A stretch of DNA of 22,758 nucleotides. Origin: a virus. Positions 1,903 through 21,000 of this stretch are shown here, in pieces. The notes below the pieces were generated by a model. That model searched no databases and was not told the DNA's origin. It worked only from the letters and a program-made list of their open reading frames with translations. Location of the stretch: the UHGV virus genome UHGV-2149192. The stretch is one strand, 5' to 3'. The position numbers and the translations under genes are program-made. Within the stretch, counting starts at the first letter, position 1. The number at the start of each line of letters is the position of its first letter.

Positions 1903-2639
1903 TGGTTGCCTCCTTTGCGAAGCTGGGCAGCAAAGTCAACTAACCACTCAGTCATTTCAACCTTCCCTACCAGGTCTGAACCAGGGTACATACAGCAATC
2001 ACTCTGCGCCGCTTTGAAATCCTTATACTCATATTCTTGGGCCACCAGATTTTTTGCAGCTTCTATAGCAGCATCCACCCCCTGCGCCAGGACTTCAGCC
2101 AGGAAAGCATCAGTGGTTGGCGTTTCAGGTATCTGTCTCCTCATCCGTTCTATTGCATGATTGAACCCGAAGTCTTCCGCGAGAGATACGTCATCCATAT
2201 TGTCATTGTCATCTTCAATATCCCGTGATTCTGGAATTGCAGACTTTATTCCCGCATTCTCCGCTGCCAGCGCCGTGAAATTACCCTCCAGCTCTGCAAT
2301 GCGCTGTTTTGCGGCATCAAGTTCAATCGATAATTTTTCCAACTGCTCTTTATGCTTCTTGTATTCCTGATATGCGTGCCAGGACTGACCTTTGCGCACA
2401 CTATCAGTAATATCAGTAATCTGTTCTGGTGTTAGAGTGGTCAGTGGCTGTGCTGGGAAAATCAGCACTTTCCCGGAATCCCAATCAAAACCAGCGTGAA
2501 TTGACTGAACTTCAACTGAGGGTGTTGAACCAATGCTGCCAGGCGAATGAACAACGATCGTTACATCCATATCGCGACGATGGCTGTGGTTGTTGGACAA
2601 AATACGATTCACCAACTCAGAAAATTTGGAAAATTTCAT
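1899..2639 (-). CDS. Hypothetical phage protein with coiled-coil segment (246 aa), possibly Ea22-like
   Basis: ATG at 2637-2639 with AAAGGGGAA upstream; acidic stretch (DIEDDNDNMDD) and coiled-coil region; operon-coupled to the downstream gene. Confidence 0.5.
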   Translation of the reverse strand: MKFSKFSELVNRILSNNHSHRRDMDVTIVVHSPGSIGSTPSVEVQSIHAGFDWDSGKVLIFPAQPLTTLTPEQITDITDSVRKGQSWHAYQEYKKHKEQLEKLSIELDAAKQRIAELEGNFTALAAENAGIKSAIPESRDIEDDNDNMDDVSLAEDFGFNHAIERMRRQIPETPTTDAFLAEVLAQGVDAAIEAAKNLVAQEYEYKDFKAAQSDCCMYPGSDLVGKVEMTEWLVDFAAQLRKGGNQ

Positions 2640-7591: not shown

Positions 7592-7654
7592 GTCTCCGCA
7601 CCTTATAAAGCGGGTGCCGGGGGTCGCAGCCCGGAATTGCATACGGCGATATAC

Positions 7655-7674
7655 GACGCGCCAGCGTCTTTTTT
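7655..7674 (+). terminator. Intrinsic terminator-like hairpin plus T-tract in the leader of Rha paralog 2
   Basis: GACGC-gcca-GCGTC stem-loop followed by TTTTTT, about 65 nt downstream of the promoter-like element. Confidence 0.45.
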
Positions 7675-7840
7675 ATCGTCCGCGCTCACGCACGCCAGAA
7701 TTATGGTGGGCTGGGCAGGGGAGCCGAAAGGCTCGCCGGTTTCCGTATGCGCCGGTACTGCGAACCCTGTTCAGTCTGCCACCAGTGAGTTTCGCAGCTC
7801 CGGTGGTGGAAGTTATCCATTGCATACGGAGGCTGCCATC

Positions 7841-8247: not shown

Positions 8248-8308
8248 GTCTCTGCACCTTATAAAGCGGGTGCCGGGCGTGGAAACCCGAAATTCAATAT
8301 AGAGCACA

Positions 8309-8329
8309 ACCGCGCTCATGCGGTTTTTT
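8309..8329 (+). terminator. Intrinsic terminator-like hairpin plus T-tract in the leader of Rha paralog 3
   Basis: ACCGC-gctcat-GCGGT followed by TTTTTT, about 60 nt after the promoter-like element. Confidence 0.45.
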
Positions 8330-8499
8330 CGTGTCATGAGCATCGTTACGCCCAAATTATGGTGGGGCGTGCAGGGCCAACTTCGGTTGGGCCGGGTTCT
8401 ATGTTGACCGGTATTTCCACCCCTGTACGTCTCACCACCTATATGGTCGTGGAAAGCCTTGGTGGTGAGTTCATTGAATTCAACATAGGGGCTGTCACC

Positions 8500-12704: not shown

Positions 12705-12947
12705 ATGACTTTTACCCCTGAGCAATTACGTAAACAGGCACAGGAAATGTTGCGGCAGGCGGAACAACTGGAAAAAACAGGTGTAACAAAAGATGCCATT
12801 CGTCGGGATATGGTGCCAGCGCTCAGGGAACTGATGCAGGCAAAACACCGTGCACAAAAAGCAGTGGATGAGCTGGTGGATTGTGTGGCAGAGCTGGAAA
12901 CCAGAGTTGGTAAGTTTGAAAAACTGGTGCAGGAGGTACTGCGCTGA
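12705..12947 (+). CDS. Small coiled-coil hypothetical protein (start ATG 12705 or TTG 12690)
   Basis: ORF track; helical, charged sequence; start ambiguous. Confidence 0.4.
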   Translation: MTFTPEQLRKQAQEMLRQAEQLEKTGVTKDAIRRDMVPALRELMQAKHRAQKAVDELVDCVAELETRVGKFEKLVQEVLR

Positions 12948-13315
12948 TGCGTGATATGTACGAAGTTTTAGATCGTTGGGGGGCCTGGGCTGCAGCAGAT
13001 AACAGTGGTGTGGACTGGCAGCCGATAGCAGCAGGCTTCAAGGGGCTTTTACCACACGGTAAAAAGTCACGTCTCCAGTGTGATGATGACGAAGGTATCA
13101 TGATAGACGGTTGTGTGGCTCGGTTGCGAAAGTATAAACCCGAAGAGTATGAGTTGATCATTGCTCACTTTGTTATTGGTATCTCATTACGCGCTATTGC
13201 TAAAAAACGGAAATGTTCAGATGGAACAATACGGAAAGAGATGCAAACAGCAATGGGGTTTATTGATGGCTGCTTGTCATTTTTCATTTACTACAATGAC
13301 TTAAGTTCTATGTAA
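12947..13315 (+). CDS. Putative late antiterminator Q (small Q family, QuuD-like)
   Basis: 122 aa, MRDMYEVLDRWGAWAAADNSGVDWQPIAAGFKG...; size, Cys pattern and position (after replication genes, before lysis genes) fit the small Q family as I recall it from E. coli DLP12 QuuD. Not verified by search. Confidence 0.5.
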   Translation: MRDMYEVLDRWGAWAAADNSGVDWQPIAAGFKGLLPHGKKSRLQCDDDEGIMIDGCVARLRKYKPEEYELIIAHFVIGISLRAIAKKRKCSDGTIRKEMQTAMGFIDGCLSFFIYYNDLSSM

Positions 13316-13378
13316 AATCGTTCTACTTTCCCAACTTTTATGTGTATATAATACCAGGATAAAGTAACGGAGAATCTT

Positions 13379-14419
13379 GTGAACATTCAGGCAGTAGACA
13401 TTTTTTGTGGTGCGGGGGGCTTAACTTTTGGGCTAAAAAAAGCCGGGATTGAGGTTTCTCATGGTATTGATATTGATGAATCCTGCCGTTTTGCTATTGA
13501 GAGCAATAATCCTTTAACGCAGTTCATTAATCAGTCAGTTACAGAACTGCAATCCTGCGATGTGTCTGCTATGTTCAAGGAAGGAAATATTAGATTGCTT
13601 GCTGGATGTGCTCCTTGCCAACCGTTTTCCAAGTATCGTAATCCAAATAGCCGTAAAGACGATACAAAGTGGCGTTTGTTATATGAGTTTCAAAGGCTTG
13701 TAAGTGATGTAATGCCAGAGCTTGTGACGATGGAGAATGTTCCTCAACTTAGAAACCATAAGGTTTTTGAAGGGTTTGTTAGTGCATTAAAGACTCTTGG
13801 ATATCATTTGTGGTACGACGTTGTAAGATGTTCTGAGTATGGCTTACCTCAAAATAGACGTAGATTAATTCTAATTGGTTCCCAATTGGGGCCGATCAGC
13901 CTTGATCAAAAAAAAGTTAGCCGTAAAGTTACTGTTAAGGATGCTATTGGTAGGTTGCCAAAAGTAGGGGCAGGTGAGAAGCTGGAAAGCGATCCCTTGC
14001 ATCGTTCGCCTAAATTGATGGATATCAATCTTAAACGAATCATGCATTCTTTACCTGGTGGTACGTGGGATGACTGGCCTGAAGAAATTAGAGCAGACTG
14101 TCATAAAAAGAATTCAGGTGCTACCTATAAAAGCGTTTATGGACGGATGGTTTGGGACGATACTAGCCCTACGATAACTACCCAGTGTTATGGATATGGA
14201 AATGGACGATTTGGCCATCCTGAGCAAAATCGCGCCATAACTTTGCGTGAAGCTGCGATTTTGCAATCCTTTCCAATGGATTATAAATTCCTTGACAAGG
14301 AGACGCCTTTTTCATTCCAAAAATTGGGGACAATGATTGGAAATGCTGTTCCCCCTATAATTGGTCAGATAATAGGGGAAACATTTATCAGACATGTTGA
14401 GGGGATAAATACCCGTTAG
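13379..14419 (+). CDS. DNA (cytosine-5)-methyltransferase
   Basis: Canonical m5C methyltransferase motifs in order: I DIFCGAGGLTFG (FxGxG), IV PCQPFS (catalytic Cys), VI ENV, VIII QNRRR, X GNAVPP. GTG start 13379 with GGAG 7 nt upstream. Lies in AT-rich DNA. Confidence 0.85.
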   Translation: MNIQAVDIFCGAGGLTFGLKKAGIEVSHGIDIDESCRFAIESNNPLTQFINQSVTELQSCDVSAMFKEGNIRLLAGCAPCQPFSKYRNPNSRKDDTKWRLLYEFQRLVSDVMPELVTMENVPQLRNHKVFEGFVSALKTLGYHLWYDVVRCSEYGLPQNRRRLILIGSQLGPISLDQKKVSRKVTVKDAIGRLPKVGAGEKLESDPLHRSPKLMDINLKRIMHSLPGGTWDDWPEEIRADCHKKNSGATYKSVYGRMVWDDTSPTITTQCYGYGNGRFGHPEQNRAITLREAAILQSFPMDYKFLDKETPFSFQKLGTMIGNAVPPIIGQIIGETFIRHVEGINTR

Positions 14420-15077
14420 AGGTAATATAATTTTCTGTTGAGTTGATTAATAAACGCAAATATAGATCAATTCTTTCTGACCTCGATTTGACTTCTTCTA
14501 AAGGGTCTATTTGACCTTTTTTAGAAAAGCTGGTACTTCCATGTGCCAGCTCATTTCTGATATCTTTAAGTAAATCTAAGTCAACACCATTTCTACACTC
14601 TGGTGAGTTTGCAACAGTTATTCCGTAAGCTTGTGTTATTTTGTGCAATACAGACTTGCAAACATTACCATTGAATTCTTTACGTATGTTTAATGAGGCT
14701 GAAATGATCCTTTTAGATATATCGGAACCAATTTTTTGATAAAGAGATTTTCCCGATTCATTATCTGAAATGATACGGTGCAAGATATTTACTTGGAATT
14801 TCTCCCTGAGTGATGCGTAATTTACTTCATTATCTTGCAAATGGTCATAAATTGACTCAATGCATCCTCTGGCAGTGTTTTCAACCTGATTGTACAGCAT
14901 CATGTGCACGGATGATTTTAAAATGTTAACCCTAAGGGTATTTGATTCTATTTCATCTTTATGCGTTTGCTGATCTAACTGCTGAGTCTGAGCCTCTAAA
15001 GATGACGCAAGAGAAAGCAATTCCATAATATCTCTTGCTCTTTCTTCGTATTCATCTCTTAAATCAATCAAACTCAT
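14388..15077 (-). CDS. HEPN-like protein (R-x4-H motif), downstream partner of the DUF262 gene
   Basis: ATG 15075-15077 with AGGAA upstream, 2 nt after the DUF262 stop (operon-coupled). Mostly helical, charged sequence with RNELAH near the C-terminus, matching the HEPN R-x(4-6)-H signature. Inference only. Confidence 0.5.
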   Translation of the reverse strand: MSLIDLRDEYEERARDIMELLSLASSLEAQTQQLDQQTHKDEIESNTLRVNILKSSVHMMLYNQVENTARGCIESIYDHLQDNEVNYASLREKFQVNILHRIISDNESGKSLYQKIGSDISKRIISASLNIRKEFNGNVCKSVLHKITQAYGITVANSPECRNGVDLDLLKDIRNELAHGSTSFSKKGQIDPLEEVKSRSERIDLYLRLLINSTENYITSNGYLSPQHV

Positions 15078-15079
15078 AG

Positions 15080-16237
15080 TTACATTCCTAATAATTTATC
15101 TTTGACATAAAATATTCTGTTTTTGAGTTGGCTGGTGTTGTTGGCACTATCAGCAGTAACTATGGTTTCAAATTCCTCCCCAAACAGCCAGTCTCCTACA
15201 GGAATAACCGGAGCCTGTAGATGTGGATTGGCTTTTAAGGCAAGAGCAGTTCCCACTGCTATGGCTTCGTATCTAGCACGGGGGGTGGTTTTGCTTGTTG
15301 GTGTCTTTTTAAACCCCATAGGGAAATGAGCATCTACAAAAGCAAGCATGCTTTCAAAATCATGTTTAAATTTGTCTACATCTTGTTGTGTGACCCTTTC
15401 GGCCTGAACATTAAGATAATTGTCAATAAAAGGAGCGACATAACCCTTATAATTTTCTAAATCATTTAAGTATGCAAAAAATCTCAAAACTAACTCACGA
15501 TGATCGCCATTCGAACGTTTCCGATCTGATAATGGAGCTAGACTAGCGAAAAGTGGATTTGTTGAGCAAGGAGTCACAACATCCCTATAGAAAATTGAAG
15601 TGGCCGCATCTGAACCATGTCTAACCTCCATCGCTTCCAGTCTCTTAACACCTGAATTTATTCTTTCGAATAAATCTCTTCTATGCTGCTCCTCAACATC
15701 ACCTTTCAATTCAATAAATCTTAGTGATGCCCTTAAAAATCGCCTCTGGCGGCTAGCCAAAAGATCTGAAAATTTGAAGCCCTCTAAACTTTTGAGTTCT
15801 TTTAAGTCTTTCAATTCAAACTGATTGTTCCAAAAGTAGTAAATTGAGCGAATCCTTTGTGAACCGTCAATAATTTCTACACGACCATCCAACTCAGGAT
15901 CTTCATTAAATACGTCGGAGATGTAGAGGTACGGGATTGGAAAATCTAATAATATACTTTCGATGAATCGAGAGGCTGTTTTGATATCCCATTTGTAATC
16001 GCGTTGATAATCAGGAATAAAAAGTTCGTTTTTGTCAGTTTCAAGATTATTGCCATACTTTTGTACAATTAATTCAACGGTCCATTCACGTACGTTGTAT
16101 CCAATATTTCTCTGAGCAAGCCTAATCTCGTTGTCGGCAGAAGTGACCAAGGCTGCAATTTCAGCTTTTTTTCTATTTTTCGCGTTTTCATCTTGAATCT
16201 GAGCAAGCTCTTCTTTGAGTTCTTTGAGTGTGGTCAT
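15080..16237 (-). CDS. DUF262 (ParB-like / GmrSD-N-terminal-like) domain protein
   Basis: Both DUF262 hallmarks are present: FIPDYQRDYKW and IIDGSQRIRSI (DGQQR-type). ATG 16235-16237 with AAGGAA upstream. No DUF1524/HNH-type C-terminal motif recognised. Confidence 0.75.
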   Translation of the reverse strand: MTTLKELKEELAQIQDENAKNRKKAEIAALVTSADNEIRLAQRNIGYNVREWTVELIVQKYGNNLETDKNELFIPDYQRDYKWDIKTASRFIESILLDFPIPYLYISDVFNEDPELDGRVEIIDGSQRIRSIYYFWNNQFELKDLKELKSLEGFKFSDLLASRQRRFLRASLRFIELKGDVEEQHRRDLFERINSGVKRLEAMEVRHGSDAATSIFYRDVVTPCSTNPLFASLAPLSDRKRSNGDHRELVLRFFAYLNDLENYKGYVAPFIDNYLNVQAERVTQQDVDKFKHDFESMLAFVDAHFPMGFKKTPTSKTTPRARYEAIAVGTALALKANPHLQAPVIPVGDWLFGEEFETIVTADSANNTSQLKNRIFYVKDKLLGM

Positions 16238-16347
16238 ATCACTGTTCCTTTAATTGGAGTTGGAAATAGATTGTAAGAAAACTATAACGCGTACGCAAAA
16301 AATATTATATCGTGTTAAGAGTGGTTACTACGCCACACAGCTTAAAC

Positions 16348-16367
16348 CCGCCGCCAGGCGGTTTTTT
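16348..16367 (+). terminator. Short GC hairpin plus T6 (terminator-like) in the intergenic region upstream of the DUF262 operon
   Basis: CCGCC-gcca-GGCGG followed by TTTTTT. Confidence 0.3.
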
Positions 16368-16490
16368 GTGTCCGAAAAACGGCGCAGTACGTTAAACGTG
16401 CTGGTGGTTGCGAATACCTGTCTTTCAGCTTGCTGGCTTTTTCGACAAGAGTTATTGGTGTGTCACGTTAACCGGAAAAGGGAAAAAGAC

Positions 16491-16654
16491 ATGCTAAAAC
16501 AGCAGGATATGACAGAAACCGCCAGAGTAGTGTTTAATGAATTAAGCGTTACCGAACCGGCGACAGTCGGGGAGATAGCGCAGAATACTTACCTTTCACG
16601 CGAACGCTGCCAGTTAATACTGACCCAGCTGGTTATGGCGGGTCTGGCAGACTA
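16491..16654 (+). CDS. Small HTH-like protein, truncated in this assembly by the N-run
   Basis: ATG 16491 (AAGGGA upstream); MLKQQDMTETARVVFNELSVTEPATVGEIAQNTYLSRERCQLILTQLVMAGLAD then runs into N. The ORF-track entry 16254..16835 is an artefact of a TTG start and translation through the N-run. Confidence 0.4.
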
Positions 16655-16750
16655 NNNNNNNNNNNNNNNNNNNNNNNNNNNNNNNNNNNNNNNNNNNNNN
16701 NNNNNNNNNNNNNNNNNNNNNNNNNNNNNNNNNNNNNNNNNNNNNNNNNN
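16655..16750. other. Run of 96 N (assembly gap or masked bases)
   Basis: Directly visible; content and true length unknown. Confidence 1.
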
Positions 16751-16827
16751 GGGTTCACAAGCAAACCTCAGGCCCACTGCTTTGCGCAAAAGCAGAATGA
16801 GCCTATCAGAGACAGGCTTAATGATCC

Positions 16828-17877
16828 ATGCTTAATACTGTAAAAATATCCAGTTGTGAGTTAATCAACGCCGACTGCCTGGAATTTATCCGGTCGTTAC
16901 CCGAAAATTCTGTTGACCTGATAGTCACGGACCCGCCGTACTTTAAAGTGAAGCCTGAGGGCTGGGATAACCAGTGGAAGGGCGACGATGATTACCTGAA
17001 GTGGCTGGACCAGTGTCTGGCGCAGTTCTGGCGGGTGCTGAAACCTGCCGGAAGTCTTTACCTGTTCTGTGGTCATCGCCTGGCATCTGATATCGAAATC
17101 ATGATGCGTGAACGCTTCAGTGTGCTGAACCATATTATCTGGGCGAAGCCGTCCGGACGCTGGAACGGATGCAACAAGGAAAGCCTGCGGGCGTATTTCC
17201 CCGCCACAGAGCGCATTCTGTTCGCGGAACATTATCAGGGGCCGTATCGTCCGAAAGATGCCGGGTATGCGGCGAAGGGCAGTGCACTGAAACAGCATGT
17301 GATGGCCCCGCTGATTTCTTACTTTCGTGATGCGCGCGCGGCCCTGGGGATAACGGCAAAACAGATTGCAGATGTCACAGGAAAGAAAAACATGGTGTCG
17401 CACTGGTTCAGTGCCAGTCAGTGGCAGCTACCGAACGAAAGCGATTATCTGAAATTACAGTCGCTGTTTGCCCGGGTGGCAGAAGAGAAACATCAGCGCG
17501 GTGAACTGGAAAAGCCCCACCACCAGCTGGTGGATACGTATACGTCACTGAACCGGCAGTATGTGGAGCTGCAGAGTGAATATAAGCATCTGCGGCGGTA
17601 TTTTGGTGTGACGGCGCAGGTGCCGTACACGGATGTATGGACACATAAACCGGTGCAGTTCTATCCCGGGAAACATCCGTGCGAAAAACCGGCAGAAATG
17701 CTGCAGCAGATAATCAGCGCAAGCAGTCGTCCGGGTGACCTGGTTGCAGATTTTTTTATGGGCTCAGGTTCAACGGTAAAAGCGGCACTGGCGCTCGGGC
17801 GTCGTGCGATTGGCGTTGAACTGGAGACCGGACGTTTTGAGCAGACAGTCAGGGAAGTTCAGGATTTAATCGTTTGA
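16828..17877 (+). CDS. Beta-class amino-methyltransferase (N6-adenine or N4-cytosine DNA MTase)
   Basis: Motif IV DPPY (LIVTDPPYF) near the N-terminus and the AdoMet-binding FFMGSGST near the C-terminus (IV-then-I order of beta-class N6_N4 MTases); no adjacent endonuclease candidate. Confidence 0.8.
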   Translation: MLNTVKISSCELINADCLEFIRSLPENSVDLIVTDPPYFKVKPEGWDNQWKGDDDYLKWLDQCLAQFWRVLKPAGSLYLFCGHRLASDIEIMMRERFSVLNHIIWAKPSGRWNGCNKESLRAYFPATERILFAEHYQGPYRPKDAGYAAKGSALKQHVMAPLISYFRDARAALGITAKQIADVTGKKNMVSHWFSASQWQLPNESDYLKLQSLFARVAEEKHQRGELEKPHHQLVDTYTSLNRQYVELQSEYKHLRRYFGVTAQVPYTDVWTHKPVQFYPGKHPCEKPAEMLQQIISASSRPGDLVADFFMGSGSTVKAALALGRRAIGVELETGRFEQTVREVQDLIV

Positions 17878-17926
17878 AACGGATGAGATTGCAGAATTAA
17901 TTACGCACCATTATTATTCTGCTCCC

Positions 17927-18002
17927 GGCCCTTTAGCTCAGTGGTGAGAGCGAGCGACTCATAATCGCCAGGTCGCTGGTTCAAATCCAGCAAGGGCCAC
18001 CA
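17927..18002 (+). tRNA. tRNA-Ile2 (anticodon CAU, ileX/ileZ-like)
   Basis: GGCCCTTTAGCTCAGTGGTGAGAGCGAGCGACTCATAATCGCCAGGTCGCTGGTTCAAATCCAGCAAGGGCCACCA: perfect 7-bp acceptor stem, anticodon loop CTCATAA, T-loop TTCAAAT, encoded CCA; closely resembles E. coli ileX as I recall it. Confidence 0.8.
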
Positions 18003-18009
18003 TCACATA

Positions 18010-18086
18010 CCGCCATTAGCTCATCAGGAAAGAGCGCCAGCCTTCGAAGCTGGTTGCGCGGAGTTCGGGTCCCCGAAGGCGGTCCA
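18010..18086 (+). tRNA. tRNA-Arg-like (anticodon UCG) with imperfect stems; possibly degenerate
   Basis: Cloverleaf can be drawn with anticodon loop CTTCGAA (UCG) and encoded CCA, but the acceptor stem has an A-A mismatch, the T-stem has an A-C mismatch, and the T-loop is TTCGGGT. Confidence 0.45.
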
Positions 18087-18099
18087 TTATCTGTATCCT

Positions 18100-18176
18100 G
18101 CGTTGTTAGCTCAGCCGGACAGAGCAATTGCCTTCTAAGCAATCGGTCACTGGTTCGAATCCAGTACAACGCGCCA
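18100..18176 (+). tRNA. tRNA-Arg (anticodon UCU)
   Basis: GCGTTGTTAGCTCAGCCGGACAGAGCAATTGCCTTCTAAGCAATCGGTCACTGGTTCGAATCCAGTACAACGCGCCA: perfect acceptor stem, anticodon loop CTTCTAA, T-loop TTCGAAT, CCA encoded. Confidence 0.8.
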
Positions 18177-18191
18177 CACTTATTTTCCCTG

Positions 18192-18215
18192 GCTCGCTTT
18201 TGCGGGCTTTTTTTT
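18192..18215 (+). terminator. Rho-independent terminator after the tRNA cluster
   Basis: GCTCGC-tttt-GCGGGC hairpin followed by eight T. Confidence 0.6.
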
Positions 18216-18411
18216 AAATGTCTCACAATTCAGGCGGTTGACTGTTGTCTGGTTTGCGGGGAGTTTGTTAAAAGAAACTGGCATGGTGAATCCCCCTGTG
18301 CGGAGGGGCAATCAGCGAGTAGGTATATGGGATAATCGCGGATTCAGGTGCTGGTACTGAATTCACCGGGAGGCACCCGGCACCATGCAATGGCACATAG
18401 CGCCACTCTCC

Positions 18412-18446
18412 AGCCCCTCTCCGGAGGGGCTGTTTATATTGATTTT
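18412..18446 (+). terminator. Second terminator-like hairpin (AGCCCCTC-tccg-GAGGGGCT) with T-rich tail
   Basis: Perfect 8-bp GC-rich stem followed by gtttatattgatttt; a related hairpin CCCCT-gtgcgg-AGGGG lies near 18285-18300. Confidence 0.45.
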
Positions 18447-18466
18447 GTCAGATGTGAGTAAACTCC

Positions 18467-18802
18467 TTATGGACTTTGTTGTTTTAGTCCATAAGGACAT
18501 ATTTGCAGAGTGCAACGGTTATTAAAGCATTCATTCAATACGTTATCTGTATTTGTAGGGCATTCCTGGCTGTTTTTGATTAAATTCCAGAATGTTTTAT
18601 TGAATGGTACTACGTTGTAAATGGTTACAGGTAGCACTTTGTTATTGAGCATGATGCCTGTGTGAGTCAGTGTAAATATACTTTCAGGAGGTAAGAAAGC
18701 ATCCGATTGATACCAGATTATTAATTTTATTTTACTCCATATGACTGAAAAAGATATTCCGCATGATGGCTGGATAACTGTATCAATCACAATCCACTTC
18801 AT
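18467..18802 (-). CDS. Hypothetical protein (111 aa) in an AT-rich island at the position where Stx phages carry toxin genes
   Basis: ATG 18800-18802 with AAGGAA at 6-nt spacing; C-terminal Cys-rich segment ([24 protein letters not shown]); sits in an AT-rich block between tRNAs and lysis genes. No similarity recognised. Confidence 0.35.
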
Positions 18803-19062
18803 TTGGTTTCCTTGTTTATGCCTTGCTGGTGATGTCCTGAAAAGTATAAATGATATTTTTGAATGTAAACCATAGAGCAGAATTATTTTTCTGATGTTGT
18901 TTATTGTTTATTTAAATGCAGGGTGGTTTATATCTCGTCTTGTAGTTTATCCATGCATATCTGCTTGATAATCAGGTTTTTATTTAAGGTATAGTTTTGT
19001 GTTTTTTCTGTATTACATGTCAGGTATTTTAAAGAATTATTTTTCAGATAGTGGAAAGAACC

Positions 19063-19251
19063 ATGGCATTTAAACACTATGATGTTGTCAGGGCGGCGCC
19101 GCCGTCAGATCTTGCGGAAAAGCTGACACATAAACTGAAAGAGGGCTGGCAGCCGTTTGGTAGTCCGGTGGCCATAACCCCTTATACCCTGATGCAGGCG
19201 ATTGCAGCAGAAGGTGATGTGGTGGTCAGTGGTGCAACTGAGCCGGAGTGA
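19063..19251 (+). CDS. Small conserved phage protein (possibly DUF1737-like) upstream of the lysis cassette
   Basis: ATG 19063 (ORF track begins at in-frame GTG 19051); MAFKHYDVVRAAPPSDLAEKLTHKLKEGWQPFGSPVAI... resembles small proteins found next to lysis genes in lambdoid prophages (from memory). Confidence 0.45.
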   Translation: MAFKHYDVVRAAPPSDLAEKLTHKLKEGWQPFGSPVAITPYTLMQAIAAEGDVVVSGATEPE

Positions 19252-19494
19252 TACTACGTCATCGTACTGGCCCGGCATTCCAGGCCATAAAAGACAGTCT
19301 GGCAGTGGGACTAAATGCACTGACGCTGACGGATATTACCAAAAATGCAACGTATGGCGTTGAGATAGAAAGTCTGGCGCTGGAGATAAATGCACCGGCA
19401 TCATCATAAAAAGTGAGCCAGTCAAATGGAAGGTATCGTTAAACTCACCGGTAGTGTCAGTGGGTCGTCTGAGACGCTTGCATGAGTTATCAGA

Positions 19495-19526
19495 GCCATC
19501 AGTAGTTAACTGGTGGCTTTTTTATT
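19495..19526 (+). terminator. Strong intrinsic terminator immediately upstream of the holin (tR'-like position)
   Basis: GCCATCAG-tagttaa-CTGGTGGC (8-bp stem with one G-U) followed by TTTTTTATT; about 30 nt upstream of the holin RBS. Confidence 0.55.
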
Positions 19527-19558
19527 GTTGTCAGCTTCCGGATAACGGGAGACGGGGT

Positions 19559-19774
19559 ATGGACCAGATGGAAAAAATCACAACAGGTGTGTCATACACC
19601 ACGTCAGCGGTGGGAACGGGCTACTGGTTCCTGCAGTTGCTGGACAGGGTTTCCCCGTCTCAGTGGGCGGCAATAGGCGTGCTGGGAAGTCTGCTGTTTG
19701 GGCTGCTGACATATCTGACTAACCTGTATTTCAAAATCAGAGAGGACCGTCGTAAGGCGGCACGGGGAGAGTAA
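19559..19774 (+). CDS. Class II holin, phage-21 S-like pinholin (dual start MDQM)
   Basis: [71 protein letters not shown] closely resembles the S21 pinholin as I recall it; two TM segments; Met1/Met4 dual-start arrangement; GGGAGACGGGG RBS. Confidence 0.85.
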
Positions 19775-19778
19775 TTCA

Positions 19779-20123
19779 ATGACTCAAAACTATGAACTGA
19801 TTGTGAAAGGGATCCGCAATTTTGAGAATACAGTTACGGTAACTTTAGCGTTACGGGACAAAAAACGCTTTGACGGTGAAATTTTAGACCTGGACATCTC
19901 GCTGGACCGTGTTGAAGGTGCCGCGCTGGAGTTTTATGAGGCAGCAGCCAGAAGGAGCATCAGACAGGTCTTCCTGGATGTTGCTGCCGGGTTATGTGAA
20001 GGGGATGAGCAGTCACCGGAAAAGCGCCCCATAATTTTAGAGGCGCAGGGTGTGTGGATAACCTACAAAGGAAAACTGCCGGGAAGAATTACTGGTTCAC
20101 TGAAGACTCCGCCGAAATGGTAA
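19779..20123 (+). CDS. Hypothetical protein (114 aa) inserted between holin and endolysin
   Basis: ATG 19789-19791 (ORF-track 19779 is an in-frame GTG) with GGGGAGAG 9 nt upstream; no motif recognised. Confidence 0.5.
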   Translation: MTQNYELIVKGIRNFENTVTVTLALRDKKRFDGEILDLDISLDRVEGAALEFYEAAARRSIRQVFLDVAAGLCEGDEQSPEKRPIILEAQGVWITYKGKLPGRITGSLKTPPKW

Positions 20124-20466: not shown

Positions 20467-21000
20467 ATGAACGCAAAAATCAGATACGGCCTGTCGGCTG
20501 CCGTTCTGGCACTGATTGCCGTCGGTGCGCCTGCGCCTGATATTCTCGACCAGTTTCTGGATGAAAAAGAAGGTAACCACACAACGGCATACCGCGATGG
20601 TTCCGGTATATGGACCATCTGTCGTGGTGCCACAATGGTGGATGGTAAGCCCGTCATACCGGGAATGAGGCTGTCGAAGGAAAAATGCGACCAGGTTAAC
20701 GCTATTGAACGTGATAAGGCGCTGGCATGGGTGGAGCGCAATATTAAAGTACCACTGACCGAACCACAGAAAGCGGGTATAGCGTCATTCTGTCCCTATA
20801 ACATTGGCCCCGGTAAGTGTTTCCCGTCGACGTTTTATAAGCGGCTGAATGCCGGTGATCGTAAGGGCGCATGCGAGGCGATTCGCTGGTGGATAAAAGA
20901 TGGTGGGCGCGATTGCCGCATACGTTCAAATAACTGCTATGGACAGGTTATTCGTCGTGACCAGGAAAGCGCATTAGCCTGTTGGGGGATAGATCAGTGA
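20467..21000 (+). CDS. R: SAR endolysin (T4-lysozyme-like family, signal-anchor-release type)
   Basis: N-terminal weakly hydrophobic Gly/Ala-rich SAR segment ([18 protein letters not shown]) followed by the lysozyme catalytic region ([22 protein letters not shown]); pairs with the pinholin as in phage 21. Confidence 0.85.

Follow-up and report, generated by a model that had tools for sequence, protein, structure and literature searches.

The 22,758-nucleotide (nt) stretch of the virus genome UHGV-2149192 analysed here, to which we refer as a whole as the window, derives from an Escherichia coli lambdoid prophage, and parts of it share 87-99% identity with Stx2 phages, phiP27 and numerous E. 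coli chromosomes. The window encodes an antiterminator of the Q family, which is separated from the holin gene by about 6.2 kb of cargo. The late promoter of this phage and the site at which Q loads onto RNA polymerase are probably located at about 16288-16367, that is 3 kb downstream of Q and behind a cargo insert with a C5 methylase and a DUF262-HEPN defence operon. This region contains a module that is conserved among related prophages in sequence and in layout, and its Q box co-varies with Q. An earlier note on this DNA had asked where the late promoter lies and had offered either the spacer next to Q or a region shortly before the holin. The question was the right one; however, a third location, 16288-16367, fits better. 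The note had also recommended a comparison of synteny with relatives, and the examination of more than 200 related loci indeed revealed a conserved module 3' of Q at variable distance.

The Q gene and the conserved module

The Q protein belongs to the short form of its family, with 122 amino acids (aa). It matches the profile PF06530, which represents the Q21 family (PMC9388147), over positions 1-111 of 118 with 159.7 bits at a cut-off of 26. Moreover, it is 48% identical to QuuD of E. coli K-12. The Q21 structure 6p18, reportedly solved by Yin et al. in 2019, gave a weak phmmer match restricted to residues 8-86 (E=1.2e-3), and tblastn with Q21 yielded 25% identity (E=1e-5). As the earlier note had supposed, this gene is the sole Q in the window, in which searches with representatives of five Q types (lambda, 21, Sp10, Sp12 and the 273-aa type) found no second Q-like gene.

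The module starts with a palindrome that occurs only once in the window, at 16289, and continues with an A-tract, two overlapping -10-like hexamers, an element resembling a pause site, a small hairpin and an intrinsic terminator (Table 1). TAAGAGT (16316-16322) begins 13 nt after the start of TATTAT. A hairpin with six T stands shortly 3' of the candidate promoter, as in known late cassettes. This candidate tR' terminator ends about 53 nt past the predicted start, and the leader has about 50 nt. The candidate promoter does not adjoin Q as in such cassettes but is located about 3.0 kb from the Q stop codon. On the minus strand of 16303-16312, a partly conserved TATnGTA reads as a -10-like TACnAT, which is TATAAT in the window and TACAAT in many relatives.

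The curated genome of phage 21 (GenBank OL657228) served as the reference for a characterised arrangement (Table 1). Its Q also belongs to PF06530, and the order of the elements, their spacing and the length of the leader match those of the window module. In phage 21 the Q-binding site lies in the spacer between the -35 and -10 elements (-27 to -12), and the box with its A-tract occupies the same position in the window. In both cases, a TAAG... sequence, the pause element of phage 21 and a putative one in the window, begins 13 nt downstream of the first base of the -10 element, a terminator is found about 50 nt past the start site, which in the window is a predicted one, and the region further downstream contains tRNAs and a holin of the phage 21 type. 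However, the Q protein of phage 21 has 162 aa and is only weakly similar to that of the window, its binding site consists of two tandem 8-bp repeats instead of an 8-bp palindrome with an A-tract, and its promoter is located 7 nt rather than 3 kb from Q. Furthermore, the TTGACA of its -35 element is absent from the window module. The initial transcribed sequence of lambda, AACGATGGGTTAATTCGC, also resembles TAAGAGTGGTTACTACGC of the module. The pause-like TAAGAGTGG at 16316-16324 is near-invariant among the related modules and can be aligned both with TAAGCTG of phage 21 and with AACGATGGG of lambda, its hexamer being imperfect and the start site from which it is counted predicted.

Table 1 Features of the window and of the phage 21 reference (positions of phage 21 refer to OL657228, locus L206)
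Feature	Position	Strand	Basis or remark
Q antiterminator, Q21 family, short 122-aa form	12947-13315	+	PF06530 (Phage_antitermQ), E=3e-47
-10-like element TATATAAT	13345-13352	+	30 nt 3' of Q stop
C5 cytosine DNA methyltransferase (cargo)	13379-14419	+	PF00145, E=1e-53; PADLOC MTase_II, 1.6e-87
HEPN protein (cargo)	14388-15077	-	Pfam HEPN_MAE_28990, 4e-16
DUF262/GmrSD_N protein (cargo)	15080-16237	-	Pfam GmrSD_N, 1e-25; PADLOC NsnA, 5.6e-46, and PD-T4-2_A, 4e-27
Candidate Q-binding element: palindrome GCGTACGC (16289-16296), then six A (16297-16302)	16289-16302	+	Comparative
Overlapping -10-like hexamers TATTAT (16303-16308) and TATCGT (16308-16313)	16303-16313	+	Predicted start 16314-16320
Pause-element-like TAAGAGTGG (16316-16324), then small hairpin (16321-16336)	16316-16345	+	Leader near-invariant across Q types
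Candidate tR': intrinsic terminator CCGCCGCCAGGCGG, then six T	16348-16367	+	Terminator scan, folding
Small 65-aa open reading frame, partly hidden by N run	16491-16750	+	Counterpart in L002, 6592-6789
N6/N4 DNA methylase	16828-17877	+	Pfam; block common to Stx2 phages and phiP27
tRNA-Met(CAT)/Arg/Arg	17927-18176	+	Block common to Stx2 phages and phiP27
Terminator after tRNAs	18191-18215	+	Terminator scan
Small RNA STnc100	18252-18441	+	Rfam RF02076, 132.4 bits vs gathering 47, full length 1-206
Own terminator of STnc100	18411-18432	+	-20.3 kcal/mol, z=-4.4
iraM-like anti-adapter gene, AT-rich (33% GC), convergent	18467-18802	-	Annotated IraM in a 96.5%-identical phage
Terminator before holin	19492-19526	+	-17 kcal/mol, z=-5.0; T-run ends 33 nt before holin
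Phage 21-type holin	19560-19774	+	PF04971
DUF1327/YdfR	19779-20123	+	
Lysozyme	20467-21000	+	
Phage 21: Q stop	2232		
Phage 21: -35	2239-2244		
Phage 21: Q-binding element	2247-2262		
Phage 21: -10	2262-2267		
Phage 21: start site	2274		
Phage 21: pause element TAAGCTG	2275-2281		
Phage 21: terminator end	2323		tRNAs and holin follow

The comparison across loci was based on 80 viral contigs that had been retrieved with the Q protein and on 120 more that had been retrieved with a 16-mer from the module. In about 200 loci, the module is found 0 to 3.8 kb 3' of Q. Several copies have no cargo and lie 64-76 nt past the point where the Q alignment ends. For instance, the module of Stx2_EH2246 follows 38 nt after a related Q, and that of phiP27 lies behind an insert encoding a GIY-YIG nuclease. 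A scan of one genome per species with the 16-mer detected true copies only in Enterobacterales; most matches outside this order were due to chance and were filtered out, as were some fuzzy pattern matches that turned out to be coding sequence (TGAAGAGTGGTATC).

The conserved columns among the 85 distinct copies follow one order, namely an A-rich stretch, a box of 8-9 bp, five or six A, two overlapping -10-like hexamers and the near-invariant G-TTAAGAGTGGTTAC...CTTAA. In the second hexamer, the A at position 2 and the T at position 6 are kept throughout (85/85 unique modules). In the Stx2a phage Stx2_EH2246 (locus L003, 2991-3004), the otherwise invariant TAnnnT reads CAGTAT, with a C in place of the first T but with the A and the last T intact. 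This change could affect the strength of the late promoter and toxin output. A hairpin with a T-run is present at the distance of the candidate tR' in 59 of the 66 distinct module variants, and the stem sequences are unrelated between variants. Covariation in the stem of the leader is limited to one pair with a double change, which is too little to decide whether the leader acts as DNA or as RNA.

The box differs between Q types, and the leader downstream of it is common to all of them. The Q type of the window is accompanied by GCGTACGC, the QuuD type by ACGTACGT or ACGATCGT, the Stx2_EH2246 type by GCGG-T-CCGC (GCGGTCCGC) and the phiP27 type by GGAATTCC, and further Q types have GTTATAAC, GTAATTAC, GCGT-T-ACGC or TCGT-T-ACGA. 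Perfect palindromes at this offset make up 11 of the 17 box types (205/213 modules), as compared to two at most at any other offset. Within one Q type, the box is unchanged across more than 20 different inserts. Moreover, the box tracks the predicted recognition helix of Q: CSDGTIRKE occurs together with GCGTACGC and CSDGYIGKR together with ACGTACGT, and two otherwise divergent Q proteins with SHTxxLKRLQ in common are both accompanied by GGAATTCC. The comparison thus places a putative Q-specific DNA element, the box at -27 to -12, in the promoter spacer, and the pattern is the one expected of an element to which Q would bind.

A corresponding arrangement exists in the DLP12 prophage of E. coli K-12 (quuD, nmpC, essD-rrrD-rzpD), which encodes the QuuD protein mentioned above. 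A module with the box ACGTACGT is located 5' of the holin gene and is split from quuD by the oppositely oriented nmpC gene. Its terminator ends about 110 nt before essD, and the module itself follows quuD at a distance of about 2.9 kb, on the far side of nmpC. In contrast to DLP12, where the module directly precedes the holin, the window has 3.2 kb more of late-operon cargo between the two. Q-dependent control of the DLP12 lysis cassette has been reported (Rueggeberg 2013, cited in PMC7918800).

Several observations weigh against a late promoter in the module. The generic promoter scan returned no match over the module because the module has no match to a -35 element; indeed, its -35 region is unlike TTGACA. 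The presence of two overlapping -10-like hexamers makes the start site uncertain by about 6 nt, since the alternative -10 element TATCGT would shift it to about 16320, and the start site at 16314-16320 is, as for every module, a prediction. The usual final T is missing from the pause-like TAAGAG, except in the reading AAGAGT. Q21 binds a direct repeat and not a palindrome, so that its mode of binding is not directly transferable. Q and the box are also physically linked, and part of their association could therefore reflect co-inheritance rather than function. Finally, the only mapped '+1' given for DLP12 in the literature, which was inferred from primers, is located 350 nt upstream of the module and looks like a sigmaE-type start. 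Taken by itself, this '+1' neither supports nor contradicts the module.

Other positions and roles considered

A late promoter directly 3' of Q would be in the canonical place for pR' (PMC9388147). In this case, the Q-modified polymerase would start there, transcribe the C5 methylase, continue antisense through the DUF262-HEPN operon and go on to the lysis genes. The -10-like TATATAAT on which this idea is based does exist, one base away from where it had been placed (13346-13353), and it is a perfect -10 match 30 nt from the Q stop codon; scanning and folding showed no terminator between Q and the methylase. However, when the 3' ends of Q from loci with different inserts are aligned, the homology extends no further than GFIDGC, around codon 110; this point, near 13276, marks the left edge of the cargo. 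The last codons of Q and the spacer behind it therefore belong to the insert. Indeed, the 63-nt spacer containing TATATAAT (13316-13378) is present only in loci that carry the C5-methylase cargo, and it is missing from relatives in which the same Q is followed by other cargo. The promoter and terminator scans found neither a -35 match nor a terminator in the spacer, its fold is not significant (z=-0.3), and it has no Q-type box, no pause-like element and no terminator nearby. TATATAAT is probably the C5 methylase's own promoter and thus part of the cargo, and we regard a late promoter at this position as distinctly improbable. Even less credit can be given to a second late promoter or qut site at 19260-19490, for which the strong terminator 33 nt before the holin would serve as tR' as in lambda. 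This terminator, which the earlier note had described, is real, and a weak -10-like TAAACT can be read by eye at about 19441-19446. However, the region is occupied by a DUF1737 gene and a 53-aa open reading frame (ORF) and is mostly coding, and the scan detected no plus-strand promoter-like match and no Q box in it, the only Q box being the one at 16289. The terminator at 19492-19526 is thus preceded neither by a Q box nor by a promoter-like site, as a tR' of the lambda type would be. Furthermore, related holins in Stx2 phages and at other loci are preceded by versions of it with compensatory changes in the stem, and a near-identical copy exists in Sakai Sp10, whose different Q has its own terminator directly 3'. 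The same terminator is hence found in front of the holin in phages whose Q types and upstream sequences are unrelated; in Sakai Sp12, another hairpin takes this place. Because the terminator goes with the holin module whatever the Q type, it does not occupy the tR' position of this phage; it would rather bar polymerase that has not been modified by Q from the lysis genes.

It is unlikely, though less so than either of these positions, that the module at 16288-16367 is independent of Q and represents a small-RNA (sRNA) gene or an insulating promoter-terminator unit, with another factor bound to the palindrome. The leader is kept across Q types, as would be expected of a functional RNA, palindromes are typical of repressor operators, and short pR' transcripts can serve as sRNAs, for instance StxS (PMC7547250). 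What speaks for a role of Q is that the box co-varies with Q and with its helix over many cargo contexts and that Q is the sole gene that is always upstream. Moreover, the Rfam scan assigned the module to no family, even at E=10. HnrS, a 66-nt sRNA present in multiple copies in prophages (PMC13502914), was considered as the transcript of the module or as the pre-holin element. It was rejected because Sp10 has another Q type and no module, and because the pre-holin regions of Sp10 and Sp12 differ while the HnrS copies are identical.

Cargo between Q and the lysis genes

The genes 3' of Q are arranged in the order C5 methylase, convergent DUF262-HEPN operon, small ORF, N6 methylase, three tRNAs, STnc100, iraM-like gene on the minus strand, DUF1737 gene, strong terminator and phage 21-type holin with the other lysis genes. 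The earlier note had listed two methyltransferases, the minus-strand DUF262-HEPN operon, three tRNAs, an AT-rich gene and at least four terminator-like hairpins, all of which are present, and it had rightly emphasised the distance of Q from the lysis genes. Its description holds, with deviations of no more than one or two bases; the run of N at 16655-16750, STnc100 (18252-18441) and the module (16288-16367) had escaped it. The scan of the plus strand detected 14 terminator-like hairpins, as compared to 7.6 +/- 3.0 in shuffled sequences, and these include 16348-16367, 18191-18215, 18411-18440 and 19492-19526.

In the window, the insert between Q and the module extends from about codon 110 of Q to about 16285 and consists of the C5 methylase and the DUF262-HEPN operon. 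The C5 methylase gene and the HEPN gene converge, with an overlap of 32 nt between their 3' ends (14388-14419). The operon resembles systems of the PD-T4-2 / NsnAB type in that the DUF262 protein matches the A components NsnA and PD-T4-2_A and has a partner gene, the adjacent HEPN gene on the same strand, in a two-gene operon. It differs from them in that the HEPN protein matches no PADLOC model and that the C5 methylase travels with the operon; a defence role of this operon is suggested by similarity.

The same slot is used by many other genes. Inserts of at least 200 nt between Q and the module occur in 157 loci and fall into 41 sequence clusters, which mostly contain minus-strand genes starting within about 90 nt of the module. 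Other inserts encode pairs of NA37-like proteins, a RelA/SpoT-like protein, a KAP NTPase, a NYN nuclease, the NmpC porin or a GIY-YIG nuclease, and another one encodes an AAA_15/21 ATPase beside a putative C5-methylase-like ORF. Judged by their similarities, the inserts are mostly defence-like. Recurrent two-gene minus-strand inserts with no PADLOC match were found in L016, L028, L020, L090 and other loci (clusters 1, 3, 4, 7, 8 and 10), for instance a protein of about 300 aa with a membrane protein of 150-180 aa, or NA37-like pairs. These inserts are candidates for uncharacterised defence systems. In Sakai Sp10 (L207, 14127-17626), a DNA methylase is followed by two oppositely oriented hypothetical genes, which resembles the cargo of the window but is located upstream of the Q of Sp10.

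Downstream of the module, a run of 96 N (16655-16750) hides part of the small ORF. The nearest relative, L002, has 107 nt at this place, in which the 65-aa ORF ends and a terminator-like hairpin, GCCTTCCGCAGTGAAGGC, precedes a run of T6 (L002 6776-6799). A 193-aa ORF at 16254-16835 was discarded as an artefact of the N run.

The remaining 3.2 kb, comprising the N6 methylase, tRNAs, STnc100 and the iraM-like gene, are ordinary late-operon cargo as in Stx phages and correspond to the slot where Stx phages carry stx. The gene order in Stx phages, namely Q, pR', tR', methylase, tRNAs, stx, nanS-p and lysis genes, likewise places several kb between Q and the lysis genes. The block of N6 methylase and tRNAs, STnc100, iraM and the holin module are shared with 933W/Sakai Sp5, Stx2_EH2246 and phiP27 at 87-93% identity, whereas the stx genes are absent from the window. 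In Stx2 phages, stxAB is inserted between the tRNAs and the STnc100 region, and here those blocks are adjacent. STnc100 has been located 75 nt downstream of stx2 (PMC12370729). It was also considered as the transcript between pR' and tR', and this was rejected given its place downstream of stx in Stx2 phages and 1.9 kb past the module in the window. A TTGACT is present at 18238-18243, just 5' of STnc100. Stx phages with the 144-aa Q933 differ from the window in having another pR' with a 258-nt leader, StxS (PMC7547250). Furthermore, a survey of Stx pR' regions included several without the known pR' site (PMC6266700).

In the early region, the window contains two tandem copies of a pair of isrK and the C4 antisense RNA, at 7598-7786 and 8254-8442, which are 656 nt apart (Rfam RF01394, 57-62 bits; RF01695, 80-82 bits). 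This duplicated pair resembles an immunity or antirepressor control unit of the P1/P7 type.

Late transcription and the use of the insertion slot

Based on the comparison, late transcription may proceed as follows. Q would be made from the early rightward transcript and, after induction, would bind, probably in the form of a symmetric dimer, to GCGTACGC and the adjoining A-tract (16289-16302). It would then load onto sigma70 RNA polymerase which, having begun transcription near 16314-16320, is paused on the TAAGAGTGG element, and the Q-loaded polymerase would become resistant to terminators. Conservation, layout and the co-variation of Q with its box are what the comparison shows; Q binding, the start site, the pause and the read-through we infer. 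The polymerase would have to pass five terminators, namely tR' at 16348-16367, one in the masked stretch, which is expected from the relative, and those at 18191, 18411 and 19492. The read-through would allow expression of the N6 methylase, the tRNAs, STnc100 and the DUF1737 gene, as well as of the lysis genes at a distance of 3.2 kb and of the genes that follow them. Neither the C5 methylase nor the DUF262-HEPN operon would be part of the late transcript, and only the iraM-like gene would be crossed head-on. Since the defence operon lies upstream of this late promoter, the paradox of head-on transcription through it would be removed.

Cargo between Q and the lysis genes is already well known from Stx phages and DLP12. 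What appears to be new, as a variant of the known arrangement, is the displaced promoter, the palindromic boxes that are specific to the Q type and the insertion hotspot. It is conceivable, and we put this forward only tentatively, that the short Q proteins of the QuuD type bind palindromes of 8-9 bp as symmetric dimers, unlike Q21 with its tandem repeats and the monomeric Q of lambda. At the same time, the few dozen bases between the C-terminus of Q and its site would be a dedicated and heavily used hotspot for defence and accessory genes in enterobacterial lambdoid prophages. Since most inserts are oriented away from the promoter and start no more than about 90 nt from it, the cargo may be transcribed from a divergent promoter with a common -10 region, and Q binding could then affect the expression of defence genes at the late switch.

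Since many of the at least 41 insert types have no PADLOC match, the slot should be useful for seeking new defence systems. Moreover, the pairing of recognition helices with sites yields a table that can be tested by swaps. The module would provide a late-promoter model for a large group of prophages with Q proteins of the Q21 family, including some Stx2 phages, phiP27 and DLP12 of E. coli K-12. In Stx phages of this kind, toxin output would depend on this promoter.

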